Shown here in pieces: positions 14,075 through 54,178 of a stretch of 64,000 bases of DNA. Both the position numbers and the translations under genes were made by a program. The stretch's first letter is position 1; the number at the start of each line of letters is the position of its first letter. Origin of the DNA: Phoronis australis (Eukaryota > Animalia > Phoronida); contig NMRA01000310.1 in assembly GCA_002633005.1 (NCBI GenBank), positions 66,624 through 130,623 on the forward strand, written 5' to 3'. The notes under the pieces were generated by a model. The model was not told the DNA's origin. It made no database searches and saw nothing but the letters and a program-made list of their open reading frames with translations.

Positions 14075-14358
14075 CTGAACACAATGGTCAAGGAAAGGAC
14101 AGTTTGAGAACAGTAACATTACTCTAGTACAGTCTATATCTGTGTGTCGTGTCTTGTCAATGCATCCAATGGTGACAAATGCCTTTTCTCTGTTTTGACA
14201 AAAGTGATAAGCCCATGGGTAAATGAAAATAGTCTAGTTGAGAACCTGCTGCTTAAAATAGTCACAGAAATAACATTGGCTAACTATCGTAATTCTTCAA
14301 CTTTTGACCAAAAGTTGACGATTGACAAAATGTCTTCCACTGTGGTAACTAAGGATAC
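14075..14358 (-). other. U12-type GT-AG intron (284 nt)
   Basis: 5' end GTATCCTT; branch site TTCCTTGAC at 14095-14087, close to the 3' CAG. Confidence 0.9.
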
Positions 14359-14476
14359 AGTTACCAAAGAGCACCAGCAGGACAAAGTAGAAGCATATGG
14401 GCATACCATCAGGTACACCTCCGTACGACCGGATGCCATTGTACATGACCTCATTCCAGTCTTCACCTGTCAAGAT
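14359..14476 (-). CDS. Cav2: Cav2 exon, DII selectivity filter and start of IIS6 (118 nt)
   Basis: [39 protein letters not shown]; ends T|GTATCCTT. Confidence 0.96.
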
Positions 14477-16558
14477 CTTCAAAAAGAAACGATTGACACA
14501 ATGCAGTGAATACAGTGACAAAAACTCATTCTCAAGAGCATTTACGGGTATATACGTAGCCTCAAATTTCCTCTCAGAGGTGGACGTTATCTGCACGTGA
14601 GGACTACAGGAAGTCACAATGACCTTCAAAACTGGAGAACGATTGGCTGTGTGACTAGAGTTCGCACATGTGCAGATAATGCTGATACCGAGGGGAAATT
14701 GACGTAAAAATTACCCGCAAGCTTTGGGAGCAAAAGTGTAATAAATGTGACTCACCACCAGGTGGCAACCCTTGTCACAAGTCAAGACAACAACAGGCTC
14801 CACCTGGTGGCTGTATCAGACGATGCCTAACTCGGTCAAAGAATTTGGGCATTCATTAGCTTTCACACATGTTGCCGTTCTCTTTCCATGAATTACAAAC
14901 CATGGGAACACATCCAAGTTTTCACAAGATCCGTAATAAATCTGTGCATTGTGAAAAGCCAGTTAGAAACGCAGTGCAAAGATACGGTGAATTAATTATA
15001 TCTCTTATCAAAAAGAAAATACTTTGAAGTTCGGAGAAAAAATAATACTACAACATTTCATTACAAGTAAAAATTTTGGCATTTACTAATGAACCTCCAA
15101 TGAGCCACACACCACACTGAAGTATGAACAACATTTTAATACTCAATTATTCAATCATTTTTCACAATCTCAAATGAGAAACATCACCAAACACTTTTAC
15201 AACAAGAAACTAGTCACACAATGCTACAAATAACTTAAAAATACAACTACCACAAAGACCTCAATTCCGTCATTTACAAACGAAAAGGTTATTTTCAAGA
15301 GCTTATCTGTGTTTTTCTAATGAAAAACTTTACATGCAAACAGTCGAAGCTCCTATAAACCGACATTCCGCCAAAGAAACAAAACTTTGTATCATTTACT
15401 ACTATAAAACTAGTCCCCACCTTGGACCTAACTCAGTTGACAATTGGTTTCTGGCCATGGAAAGAACCAACAATATGCCTAAGGCCACATTCTGAGCTTG
15501 GAAGGGGTAAGTTGTCCCGGAGTGACTGTAAATCGTGGGTGTCGTTCACGCACAATAGACATTTTGAAATAGACAAGCAAGGTGAATGAAAGTAGCTCCT
15601 AGTCACAAGGCTAGACAAAGGGTTTTTGGTCCTGCCCCCTGAGAAGATAATTGTTTTATTACCCCCTACGGGTTTGAATAGCCAAGCCCTTGAATGCACG
15701 CTTGGCGTTTAAAATCACCCACTACAGCCAGCCTGAACTTCTTGATCAGGCTGTTCACAAGCAATGCTATCATGTTATTCAAAGCCCAAAATCTCATCTA
15801 CAATAAAAAAGTCTTCCGTTTAGGACACAATATGGTGGACAGGTGATATTTTATTTCGTCAAATTTTTCAAAAAAAAATTTTCTGGAAAATTTACTTTGC
15901 TTTTAGCATGGTTTTTATGGTGTACCTAAAAACATTTGGTAAAATTTTGAGCATTTAGATCAAGATGGCAAGCTTTTAAAAAATAGAAATACGGCAATTA
16001 AGCAATTATTTTTGTCCCAAATTGAAGATTTTTTACTGTAATTTGAGTAAGGAATGCAAGGTCGAGACTAATTTCATAATTGTTGTGTTAGTGTTCTACA
16101 TTGAAAGTTTTAGTTTTGACGAAACTACGTCGGTTTATAGCACCACACTACAACACATAGGAAACGAAGATAATTGATGAAAAATGACAGGCTAAAAGAG
16201 TCTTAATCCATATGGCAAGTATAGAAAGGATAAACAATACATACCAGAAAACAAAATGAATGCCATGCAAAAATGAACTTTGTGATCTTGAGTGCAAACA
16301 CGTAGCCCTACGTCATTCACTATTAACCAAATTCAACGGAACGTTCGTCGAGAGGACATCAGCAACAAATGTACCATGTCATAATCACCCAGACCAATTA
16401 TGGTCATTTACCAACTACCAACCAAAGGAATTAAGGGCCACCCATTACCAAAGATGACCGTTAACCCAAAAACAAACAGGTTGACCCAGTTACCACTAAC
16501 AGCCTAAGCACATTGAGCCTGACACAATGCTACCATACACGATACAACAAAGGGCTAC

Positions 16559-16631
16559 CTGAAAGACCGTTAACAGGGCCATAACAAACGTGTCGTAATT
16601 GGCGTGAGGTCGGCCATCAGGAAAGTTCCAT
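16559..16631 (-). CDS. Cav2: Cav2 alternative domain II turret/P1 exon B (73 nt)
   Basis: WNFPDGRPHANYDTFVMALLTVFQ; caccag| ... |GTAGCC; phase 2/0. Confidence 0.92.
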
Positions 16632-16871
16632 CTGGTGAGCGGTGATGGAAAAACAGACAAATCATAATGAGCGTGATCACGCAGATAGGTGGCGCTCATC
16701 TAGAGCATGTGACATCTGGCAGTGGTGGAATGTGTGTGTGTGTCAGCAAGCTGCAGCAGTTGTTTGAAACTGTGTGTCCAATCCTACAGCATGCTGACAG
16801 TTGACCCCAAATGCACAAGCTCTAGATGACCAATCAAAACAATAAATTTGAGCTGCATTTAGCTGATCTAC

Positions 16872-16944
16872 CTGGAACACCGCCATCATTGCCATGCTAA
16901 ATGTGTCGTAATGCTGTTTGGGTCGCCCGTCCTCGAAGTTCCAC
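16872..16944 (-). CDS. Cav2: Cav2 alternative domain II turret/P1 exon A (73 nt)
   Basis: WNFEDGRPKQHYDTFSMAMMAVFQ; caccag| ... |GTAGAT; phase 2/0. Confidence 0.9.
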
Positions 16945-17760
16945 CTGGTGGTGGGCAAGGAAGTAACAACATGGCAATATTAGTACAAGCTATCCAATGT
17001 TAGTCATGTGATTGGCCAAAGGCAATTGAAATAGACCAATCCCAGTACAAACTGGCAATGCAATATTCAATCAACTGAAGAAATGGGTACCAAGGCAACA
17101 ACGACATACTCTGCTTTGAGATTTTTCTCAATCTAGTTATCTACATTTGGGAATGAATTTAGAAAAGAACAGATAAACATGTCATCAAACAAGGAACAAA
17201 ATGGCCGCTTTAATACTACACTGATACAGTGACCTTTCAAAGGTCAACGGGAGTTAACTACAGTTGGAACTGGTGAATTAAATTGGGGGATCACTCTGGG
17301 ATTCCTTCCAAGATGCAGATGCCGGGGATTGGTCCGTCTGTAATTGAGGTTAGTTGCTTAGTATAGGGGTCTACCTAACATGCAAAATAGTGTTCAGCGC
17401 AAGACTGTGAAGGGAGTGTTCTTTAAACGTAACTCATGATTCGCCTGTACGTTTAACTTAAAACTGCAAATACAGTAGCGTGCAAACTGTCTTGAAACTG
17501 AAAAATAAACATTGCAAGCCAGTGATTACATGACGGCCCTGGCGCTTTCCACTTCACTGGCTTTTATGTTATTTCTCAGATAATGTGTAATTTCGACTCA
17601 GTTTCATCCGACTTACTACCCACGATATTGACAACACGTTTGCTGGGTTTCATCGCCTTGCAACAAAATCCCTACAGCAGGGAAACCGTCGTCTGTGACG
17701 GCAGATCTCTACAGTTAATGCCATGGTTCATAGTAAGGGTGCGTCTAGTTAGATACTTAC

Positions 17761-17892
17761 TGGCCTCCAAAGAGTTGCATACCCAGCAGGGCGAAGATCA
17801 ATATGAAGAGAAAGAGCAAGAAGAGAAGACTGATGATGGAGCGCATGGAACTGAGCAGTGATATGACCAGGTTACGTAGAGATGACCAGTAT
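17761..17892 (-). CDS. Cav2: Cav2 exon, IIS5 (132 nt)
   Basis: [44 protein letters not shown]; tttcag| ... |GTAAGT. Confidence 0.96.
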
Positions 17893-18000
17893 CTGAAATG
17901 TAATACCACGAACATTCACAGTTTTGAAGCAGAGTAGTGATGTGACCAGGTTACGTAGAGATGACCAGTACCTGAAATATAATACCGTGAATATTCATAG
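17863..18000 (-). repeat. About 79-bp tandem duplication of the acceptor and 5' end of the IIS5 exon
   Basis: tgaccaggttacgtagagatgaccagta(t/c)ctgaaat occurs twice, giving candidate exon starts at 17892 and 17971. Confidence 0.85.
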
Positions 18001-18091
18001 CTGTCACTATTATTGACCATGGAGCTATCACAACGTGCCAACCACTACACTTTCTTTTTACGATTTTACTCCATCATTGGCTGACACTGAC

Positions 18092-18201
18092 CTTGTGACC
18101 TTGAATATACGTAGTAGACGAAGAGCTCGCATCACACTGAAGCCAAATGAACCGCCTCGAAAGTAGGACCAAAGGACTTCAAATAAACTACCAACTATGA
18201 C
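18092..18201 (-). CDS. Cav2: Cav2 exon, IIS3-IIS4 (110 nt)
   Basis: [37 protein letters not shown]; ttgtag| ... |GTCAGT. Confidence 0.96.
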
Positions 18202-18691
18202 CTACAAGGGAAAATGGGGAATTTGAGCACAAAAATGAAGAATGAACATTGTGCGTGACATCAAGATAAAGGACCACACCATGGCTACATTCCATAGCCC
18301 AAGTTTCTTGCAAGAAAAACATGATCACACAAGTCTTCGCGAGATATTGCCATGCATAACAACCGAAGCACATGACCACAGTAGACTTTCTCGCAAGTTG
18401 CCTTAGATTGACAGAATGCAGGCCTGAGTTAAAAATTAACCACGTTAACCCACAACCAAATACTACTAATGACATACTATCAGAATTCTTACGAGCTTTG
18501 AATAATATAAAAAAACAAAGATAATGGTTACATCTTATGTTTTTTTCAGGGAAAATTGCTTACAAACCATATATACAGCATGGGAAACACCAGAGTAAAA
18601 TATTAATGGAAAATAAATATTATTTCGGATATAACTGTATTGGGCTAATACACAACATTTTACTGCATACTTGAGGAGTCTGTGCACTTAC

Positions 18692-18808: not shown

Positions 18809-18920
18809 AATGGCAAACAAAATGGCATCAGGACAAACAAAATGGCATCGGGACAAACAAAATGGCATCGGGACAAACAAAATGGCATCGGGACAAACAA
18901 AATGGCATCGGGACAAACAA
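18809..18920 (+). repeat. 20-bp minisatellite (aatggcatcgggacaaacaa x5 plus a partial copy) abutting a 3' splice site
   Basis: Units at 18821, 18841, 18861, 18881 and 18901. Confidence 0.95.
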
Positions 18921-24145: not shown

Positions 24146-24321
24146 CTTCGATTATTTTCATTTTCTCTTCATCTGTAGTCCTCTCTTCATTTAAAATGAC
24201 CTCCTCCGCTTTACATATCCACTCGAGATAGCCGCTCAACTGACGGTCTATCTGTTGCTGTTTCCGTATCTTCAGAAAAGCCCGTCTATTTTCGACTCTT
24301 TCTCTTTCTTTGGCAAACTCT
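24146..24321 (-). CDS. Cav2: Cav2 exon, I-II linker with AID (176 nt)
   Basis: [58 protein letters not shown]; tttcag| ... |GTTAGC. Confidence 0.95.
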
Positions 24322-30142: not shown

Positions 30143-30342
30143 CCAATAAAGAACGTCTGTCCATCCCTCCATTGTAATACACTGGAATACTGTTAACATG
30201 GCAAAGCCTATATGATCATAGCTGGTGATGCCATCGTTAGGCCCGGGCCAGTCCAACAATCGACAAATGGAGGTATTACGCTGGCAGGTGGAATTCGAAG
30301 AGCACGGCACTGGCCTCCCCTCCCATTCGTCGATCTGGTCAG
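30143..30342 (-). CDS. Cav2: Cav2 alternative domain I turret/P-loop exon B (200 nt)
   Basis: [66 protein letters not shown]; gtgtctag| ... |GTAGGT; phase 1/0. Confidence 0.92.
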
Positions 30343-31396
30343 CTAGACACGATGGAAGATCACGTGTTAGGGTTGTAGAACATGCGGGGATCACACAACA
30401 TCAGAGTTAAGAGACATGCATGGTATGCCTAGTGTCAGAGTATGACAGTGTTGGTCACGTGAACACCACAGTGGCGCTACCTGTAGGTAATCTGATTGTA
30501 CTAGATGACCCAGTATAATATGACTCGACTGATTAGTCAGTATCTCTAAATGTTAGCTTAAGTAGATGCTGCAGCCAAAATAACACGAGTTTACATAACG
30601 TTGATGTCTGATCCCTTGATTTTTTTCATATCTGATCCATGGTATTGTAGCCCACATTTAGAATCTGTATAGTACAAAGAAATCATGATTCTCAACAGAC
30701 TTGACCATTTGCCTTGCTTTTTGTATTTATTGTATTATATCAGTGTTCTAATCCGAGTTGTTTTGGGACAATAGCTTCCCTGGGTGCAAAGTTCAAAGTA
30801 CGCGTTATCCTTCTGGCACACAAAACTGTTGAATCTCTTCCGGACCCCTACCGCTTAGCGAAACGGGAATTTTGATACTTTTTATTTTCAGATTCTGTAA
30901 AAAGCATTTTCAACAAAAACACATCATGATGTCATAGCCATAAACTTGCCAATTGCACTGTGTAATAATCTAGGTGAACAGTGATTTTACGAGTATTTGT
31001 AAGAGTATATTTGTTAAACGTTAAGGTTATTAACCAGTAAAAGGGAGGCTAAAACATTTTCAGCAAGCATACCAGTCTGCATAACGAAAGTTGACAGACA
31101 ACTACATTTTTGTCAGCTTGTGACCAATATAACATCAGACCCACCAAAGCGTGTTGCGATGCATCAGAATTTCATGATCGGGATCAAGTTGAAAATGTCC
31201 ATTATTATTCATATTAATTTTACACTTTGGCGCCACACGTGATTTTGGCAGCACTACTACGTCCTTTGTCAACGAATGCAGATTTGACATCACTGCCAGG
31301 CAGTCCAACAAGTACGTCACACTCTAACACCACGCAGTACAACATAGGTCAGTCCTCGACTATAGGGGGCGACCATGCATAGCACGTCCTACTTAC

Positions 31397-31605
31397 ATCA
31401 TATAACACATCTGTCCAACCCTCCATCGTAATACATTGAAAGACCGTCAGAATGGCTATGCCAATATTGTCAAAACTGGTAATGCCATCGTTTGGCCCGA
31501 TCCAGCCCTCCTGGCACATAGACTCGTTAGTGCACTTGTACCCATTGTTACCTTTTGACACGGAACAAGGATAGATGGAGCCACCTATCTCTTCGATTTC
31601 GTTGC
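31397..31605 (-). CDS. Cav2: Cav2 alternative domain I turret/P-loop exon A (209 nt)
   Basis: [69 protein letters not shown]; attacag| ... |GTAAGT; phase 1/0. Confidence 0.93.
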
Positions 31606-38954: not shown

Positions 38955-39173
<219 letters not shown>

Positions 39174-40332: not shown

Positions 40333-40424
40333 TCTCAAAACCAGTCACTAATTTCAAAGGACGCAACACCCTAATAGCCCTGAATGCCGGCTGTTTAAAT
40401 GCCGGAATAAGAATGGAGAAACAC
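40333..40424 (-). CDS. Cav2: Cav2 alternative IS4 exon A (92 nt, divergent, R1->P)
   Basis: [30 protein letters not shown](S); tttcacag| ... |GTAAGT; phase 2/1, same as exon B. Confidence 0.88.
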
Positions 40425-53963: not shown

Positions 53964-54178
53964 CCCCATTCAATGATGATTTTGGCGTATTTCCTGATGA
54001 AGTTTTCCTCACTGAATATGAAAAGTGACCGAGTATTGGAGCCTCCAAGACCTGGTAGAGATATGTGTGTCGCCTTCTTGGCAAATCCTCGTATCCCTGA
54101 GAGTTCTTTCCCGCCAATTCTCTGTTGGTTGTCGTCTGTTGCCCTTCCCATGGTCGCCATCCTGGTAAGAGAGTCCAT
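53964..54178 (-). CDS. Cav2: Cav2 first visible coding exon (N-terminus to IIIEWG)
   Basis: MDSLTRMATMGR...RSLFIFSEENFIRKYAKIIIEWG; ends GG|ATATCCTTT (U12 donor). The start is uncertain: ATG at 54178 or 54160, and an acceptor-like ctcttaccag sits just before 54161. Confidence 0.9.

Follow-up and report, generated by a model that had tools for sequence, protein, structure and literature searches.

Does the domain II pore loop of a Phoronis australis calcium channel come in two exchangeable versions, and would the choice between them alter ion selectivity? The question is raised by two neighbouring 73-nt exons, here named A and B, in the window, the whole 64-kb stretch of DNA that was analysed. 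The sequence-only reading had presented them as mutually exclusive turret exons corresponding in position to the exon 12a/12b permeability switch of Cav3 channels.

Identity of the host gene

The minus strand of the window holds a Cav2 calcium-channel alpha-1 gene with its ATG at 54178; it reaches at least as far as 4876, where the last exon found encodes IIIS3. The AID motif, defined as GY-WI in the available part of PMC7939481, is present in its I-II linker exon (24146-24321, minus strand). The exons around the domain II filter are the following:

17761..17892, minus strand: upstream exon for the IIS4-S5 linker and IIS5, its end in phase 2; best PDB matches Cav2.1, Cav2.2 and Cav2.3, with RNA joints
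16872..16944, minus strand: exon A, the upstream one of the two copies (73 nt, WNFEDGRPKQHYDTFSMAMMAVFQ), encoding the domain II turret with the P1 helix; open frame, flanked by AG and GT
16632..16871, minus strand: intron between A and B, 240 nt, with a predicted long hairpin at intron nt 43-176 (z -2.98)
16559..16631, minus strand: exon B, the downstream one of the two copies (73 nt, WNFPDGRPHANYDTFVMALLTVFQ), for which splicing was observed; RNA joints on both sides
14359..14476, minus strand: downstream exon, which encodes the domain II filter Glu-Asp, P2 and the beginning of IIS6 and has the U12-type donor GTATCCTTA; with an RNA joint

The top three PDB matches of the upstream exon, and likewise those of exon B, were all Cav2 channels (human Cav2.1, Cav2.2 and Cav2.3), which places the gene closer to Cav2.1-2.3 than to Cav1 or Cav3. 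A 27-row protein tree placed it with none of four groups (molluscs, arthropods, flatworms, vertebrates). The filter residues within the window are a Glu in both copies of the domain I exon described below and Glu-Asp in domain II, the pore loops of domains III and IV being situated beyond it. Judged by its sequence, the gene is a Cav2 alpha-1 gene, so the pair does not sit in a Cav3 host as the exon 12a/12b switch does.

Two minus-strand introns of the gene are of the U12 type: an AT-AC intron after exon 1 (53963-48622; donor ATATCCTTT, branch motif TCCTTAAC) and a GT-AG intron after the domain II filter exon (14358-14075), with the donor GTATCCTTA. At about 17890-18000 on the minus strand the acceptor of the IIS5 exon and its first codons form a short tandem duplication, and 13 of 13 junction reads take the downstream copy. 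A further tandem repeat of about 20 nt at 18820-18920 stands directly upstream of the IIS2 exon acceptor.

Structure of the exon pair

As had been proposed from the letters, two 73-nt exons separated by 240 nt fill the stretch from 16559 to 16944; they lie on the minus strand, and the next exon opens with ILTGE at 14476, its filter Glu being the fifth residue after either A or B. Both encode 24 amino acids without Cys, and the earlier statement that the cysteine number does not change between them was correct. The two copies are identical at 48 of 73 nucleotides (66%) and 16 of 24 amino acids, and each is preceded by AG and followed by GT. Third codon positions differ in 13 of 24 codons and second positions in 3 of 24, with neither stop nor indel. 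In a chance control that compared exon B with 63,926 24-codon windows of the minus strand, exon A scored 16/24 and the runner-up, the domain I pore exon, 8/24. As in tandem duplicates, A and B are homologous neighbours of equal phase, and their splice sites are intact. Moreover, they share a Tyr that is absent from 62/62 other turrets, which points to local duplication or conversion. An assembly artefact (a collapsed haplotype or a misjoin) as the source of the second copy could be suspected from the N runs elsewhere in the window, but copies of such low identity with single flanks, with no N nearby and with an identical layout in independent assemblies make this explanation negligible.

Half of the eight amino acid differences (A/B) belong to the loop, namely E/P, K/H, Q/A and H/N, and half to the P1 helix, namely S/V, M/L, M/L and A/T; this helix occupies columns 15-24 in a structure prediction for the Bugula homologue, whose mean pLDDT is 70.5. 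The term turret exon is accordingly apt for the first portion of A and B, columns 15-24 belonging to the P1 helix. The Lys of exon A at column 9, where B has His, had been missed by the earlier reading. The Asn that exon A replaces with His at column 11 had been called conserved, but His occupies this column in 14/33 unique single-copy exons of other hosts and 11/61 distinct turrets; it is also found in Lymnaea, Haliotis, oysters, Octopus, Bugula and nematodes, and Cav1.2 has Thr. The change from TVFQ to AVFQ is indeed unusual, since Thr stands at column 21 in 62/62 turrets, and Ala in 1/61 (Mnemiopsis). Most residues of exon A have precedents in other calcium channels: His in Lymnaea, Ala in Mnemiopsis and a basic Arg at the Lys column in Cav1.2.

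The donors read GTAGAT (A) and GTAGCC (B), as reported before, but they can hardly be called non-consensus: they match CAG/GTAAGT at 7/9 and 6/9 positions, the same 6-7 range as the other U2 donors of the gene. A GTRAG donor follows just 2/33 homologous single-copy turret exons, weak intronic halves being the rule for this exon. Upstream of exon A lie two strong branch-point-like motifs, CTAAT at -39 and CTAAC at -59.

Exon use in RNA

About 18-19% of three raw RNA runs carrying the same species label (X1-X3, tissue of origin unstated) was mapped onto 14330-18259 at 96% likeness, and joints were listed from three reads upwards. The use of exon B in RNA is shown by 10 junction reads, five across the joint 16631-17761 to the upstream exon (4 in X2, 1 in X3) and five across the joint 14476-16559 to the filter exon (2 in X2, 3 in X3). 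These joints come from two of the three runs, with zero B junction reads in X1, and all first mates of the B junction reads are on the plus strand, as for minus-strand RNA in most stranded libraries. No exon A joint, A-B joint or skip joint was listed in 14330-18259 at the three-read threshold in the roughly 19% of the three runs. The bin of exon A had a depth of 0.29 in X3 only, over about 38 letters and with empty neighbouring bins, a signal that fits one partly mapped spliced read. Exon A is thus minor or unused in the sampled RNA; of the mutually exclusive splicing claimed before, the junction reads bear out exon B on both sides and no listed joint corresponds to exon A.

Exon A might be an unused or decaying duplicate, or only a poison exon whose inclusion together with B leads to decay. 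The absence of listed A junctions, against 10 reads for B, is what this explanation predicts, and the residues of A are rare, with Lys in 0/61 turrets and Ala for Thr in 1/61; nevertheless, 13 third-position differences from B have accumulated without a stop, an indel or the loss of a splice site. In addition, the gene was weakly expressed in the sampled runs, and with about 19% of the three runs read, a minor form is easily missed. Taking these points together with the homologous exons of other animals described below, we consider an unused or poison exon A unlikely.

Reading frame and control of exon choice

Both exon lengths are 3n+1, and the frame test showed that the transcript stays open with A alone or B alone. 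When both are included, a stop arises at nt 13 of B and precedes a later junction by 179 nt; when both are omitted, the stop is at nt 5 of the following exon, with 114 nt left to a later junction. Transcripts with A+B or with neither would be cleared by nonsense-mediated decay. The decay of frame-broken transcripts is described in passages of PMC4165533 as a recognised support for exclusive splicing, for example in the 3n+1 pair of C. elegans cca-1. Mutual exclusivity of A and B appears well supported by the frame arithmetic, the intact splice sites and the matching pairs in other hosts, and splicing factors or RNA pairing would set the choice. The stop that follows joint inclusion is also what a poison exon would produce.

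Steric exclusion by a short intron was rejected, since the intron measures 240 nt and the distance from the donor to the likely branch point is 204 nt. The same intron forms the predicted hairpin (z -2.98), yet 4/59 other intron windows fold equally well and the hairpin is missing from the homologous introns of two loci from other animals, L005 (z -0.26) and L044 (z -0.12); hairpin-assisted exclusion, in which collapse of the stem would leave 70 nt, is thus unsupported. Incompatibility of U2 and U12 sites was rejected as well, because A and B both have U2-type sites and the U12-type intron comes after the next exon. Comparison of the three intervening introns gave no common intronic word of at least 9 nt. 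One candidate element lies in the intron downstream of exon B:

14748..14770, minus strand: intronic element complementary to the exon A acceptor, 13 perfect pairs, candidate silencer (-32.9 kcal/mol)

This pairing energy was reached by 0/100 shuffles and surpasses 28/28 other window chunks, for an element chosen post hoc from 27 inverted pairs and having a local competitor at 14795-14815. No counterpart of the acceptor-pairing element was found in L005 or L044. We treat it as a candidate lead for local control, in which the element would pair with, and mask, the exon A acceptor; an acceptor that can be masked in this way would also suit an exon A that is not used. The motif CCACCWGGTGG occurs at just three sites in the window, namely 14748-14770, 14795-14815 and the exon A acceptor, and competing RNA pairing is possible.

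Homologous exons in other animals

A metagenome scan covering 35/64 parts confirmed 265 loci; among the best 80 of these, 40 have the turret as a separate exon, and tandem 73-nt copies flanked by AG and GT were found in 3 of these 40 (L005, L044 and L054). L044 and L054 are 95% identical and represent one species, from which L076 has the second copy only. The domain II turret exon is hence tandemly doubled in two other animal hosts. The upstream flank is included in 26 of the 40 loci, 25 of them single-copy and one double, and a relaxed scan of the 25 single-copy loci revealed no hidden second turret exon.

Exon A is identical to the first copy of L044 at 56/73 nucleotides, above its identity with exon B (48/73). 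In a 29-row tree of 73 columns, exon A clusters with the first copies of L005 and L044 (support 97/91) and exon B with the second copies and two single-copy exons (96/93); this tree was obtained from one of 40 rows by dropping four long-branch rows and seven close relatives of kept rows, the 11 rows being removed after a first tree had been seen. Topology tests did not reject a clade of A and B (p-AU 0.21) and rejected a clade of all six copies (0.027). One old duplication and parallel duplications appear about equally probable from these data.

The first copies of L005 and of L044/L054 resemble both exon A and an annotated Bugula neritina protein, in which the A-like exon is the annotated form (P0166, P0429). 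Furthermore, the Gln-His-...-Met pattern of exon A was shared, among 111 turret-like strings, by Bugula alone. An A-like exon that is annotated in Bugula and kept in two other hosts argues against a useless duplicate. Exon A differs from the other first copies by 6-7 amino acid changes, against 2 between those first copies, and this drift may also fit relaxed selection. The annotated isoforms of 11 mollusc sets (up to 15-17 proteins each, clusters up to 185) included no within-species alternative of the domain II turret. Searching 1.84 billion representatives with a profile yielded 152 matches, and among the 142 new proteins inspected there was neither an A-type exon nearer than that of Bugula nor a Lys at column 9.

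The second copies of L005 (4058-4130) and L044 (921-993) are strongly divergent, with an acidic residue at column 9 and Arg at column 17, and are identical to each other at 20/24 residues. L056 and L073 are divergent Cav2-like loci whose single turret exon groups with exon B; possibly, one copy was retained following gene duplication. At about 1213 and 2465 of L010, the Cav2 IIS3-S4 exon is apparently duplicated in another host.

Comparison with the Cav3 switch

Like exons 12a/12b of Cav3 (Lymnaea LCav3; 18a/18b of C. elegans cca-1), A and B form a putatively exclusive pair that spans the domain II turret and P1 and ends before the filter. The cca-1 pair is likewise of 3n+1 length and, according to the available text of PMC4165533, partly decay-dependent. 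In contrast to the Cav3 pair, the Phoronis exons belong to a Cav2 gene, start after S5 and are equal in length (24 amino acids, against 39 and 50 in Cav3); both are Cys-free, whereas the Cav3 exons have 3 and 5 cysteines, and the cysteine loop that holds the switch lysine is absent from the short Cav2 turret. The analogy drawn before thus stands for position, the 3' end lying just before the domain II filter, and is weak for mechanism.

A selectivity switch of the Cav3 kind would require that the Lys of exon A neutralise the domain II Asp and admit sodium. In the part of PMC9694082 that describes it, the Lymnaea Cav3 switch is one lysine with a modelled salt bridge to the Asp after the domain II Glu, and exchanging this lysine exchanges the ion preference, so a single lysine suffices there. 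Exon A occupies the same channel region, ends directly ahead of the filter and has Lys where B has His, at column 9, which equals Thr643 of Cav2.2; Thr643, like Asp664, contacts the pore-blocking peptide ziconotide (PMC10761187, in the section available), and column 9 therefore likely faces the vestibule. However, the first copies of L005 and L044 and the Bugula exon all have Ala at column 9, and A and B are equal in length and lack cysteines altogether. Human Cav1.2, moreover, carries Arg at column 9 and is calcium-selective. In Cav3, as given in the available portion of PMC7382465, K1067 lies within the C1054-C1075 loop, which is set between F891 and D902 of Cav3.1; residue counting from the filter Glu, assuming no indel, would put D902 at column 8 and the Lys of exon A just outside the equivalent loop rather than inside it, as the conserved Cav3 lysine is. 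Cav3 additionally requires a particular domain IV loop (PMC10120453, as excerpted). We therefore regard a selectivity switch in this gene as improbable, and it is very doubtful that the Lys of exon A reaches the domain II 'beacon' Asp and renders Cav2 sodium-permeable. If it did, this would be the first case of ion selectivity switched by splicing in a channel of the presynaptic type, independent of Cav3 and without cysteine loops.

The reading that we consider probable is a tandem exon pair, likely used one or the other, in which B is the spliced form and A a minor, cell- or stage-restricted form that fine-tunes a channel still selective for calcium. Exon A would act on the outer mouth and the pore helix; the predicted consequences concern the charge of the vestibule, sensitivity to blocking ions or peptide toxins, gating, or the contact with alpha2delta. 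The extracellular loops I-III touch alpha2delta according to the structural description in PMC10761187, and PMC10120453, in the text available, presents the pore loops of Cav1/Cav2 as alpha2delta-constrained, with loop variability concentrated in Cav3.

Two further exon pairs

The gene carries two more pairs of homologous exons:

40333..40424, minus strand: IS3-S4 exon, copy a, 92 nt, a type found also among flatworms and in a single isoform each of Pomacea and Haliotis; from sequence
38966..39072, minus strand: IS3-S4 exon, copy b, 107 nt, the common type; from sequence
31397..31605, minus strand: copy a (209 nt) of the exon for the domain I turret and P-loop, filter Glu kept; from sequence
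30143..30342, minus strand: copy b (200 nt) of the exon for the domain I turret and P-loop, filter Glu kept; from sequence, with a read depth of 1.74 in its bin in run X3

The domain I copies are 58% identical, belong to the same phase class and both keep three turret cysteines. With one exon taken from each of the three pairs, all eight combinations are open in the frame test, and both-or-neither inclusion leads to stops. Because loops I-III contact alpha2delta, both pore-loop pairs could alter the alpha2delta interface. The IS3-S4 pair sits at the position of Drosophila IS4A/IS4B and, by comparison of the exon types, looks widespread in spiralians; having the copy a type in common with flatworms and two gastropods suggests that the host is itself a spiralian. 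In the wider read mapping, intronic repeats dominated and no usable joint emerged for the domain I pair. The intron that directly follows domain I copy a showed a one-strand depth of 1.26 at 30722-31368 in run X2, which may reflect intron retention or an alternative end.

Significance of the exon pair

Diversification of one invertebrate Cav2 gene by exclusive pairs is likewise known from Drosophila cacophony (IS4A/IS4B and I-IIA/I-IIB), whose exclusive exons at IS4 and the I-II linker tune presynaptic function (PMC11828482, in the part available). While the cacophony pairs concern the voltage sensor and the I-II linker, the Phoronis gene adds pairs in the domain I and II pore loops. Duplicated pore exons also occur in NALCN (15a/15b and 31a/31b) of lophotrochozoans and other invertebrates, where, as stated in the accessible sections of PMC4436565, they alter the filter residue itself (E/K); here, in contrast, the domain II filter is encoded by the unduplicated exon that follows A and B, and Glu is retained in either copy of the domain I exon. 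A literature search with supplements and most subscription papers outside its coverage found no published Cav2 domain II turret exon pair.

The pair is a real feature and most likely one of fine-tuning, with exon A as its putative second form. The locus thus presents a Cav2 gene with exclusive-type pairs in the pore loops of domains I and II, the doubling in domain II recurring in two hosts. A and B constitute a natural minimal swap of eight residues where pore-blocking peptides are known to bind, and their comparison bears on the question of whether the beacon Asp in Cav2 can be affected by a single basic residue in the column of Thr643. Whether old and shared or repeated, the duplication would suggest selection for alternative pore mouths. 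With three pairs and eight open combinations, all within the half of the gene seen in the window, one Cav2 gene could cover roles that are split among three genes in vertebrates.
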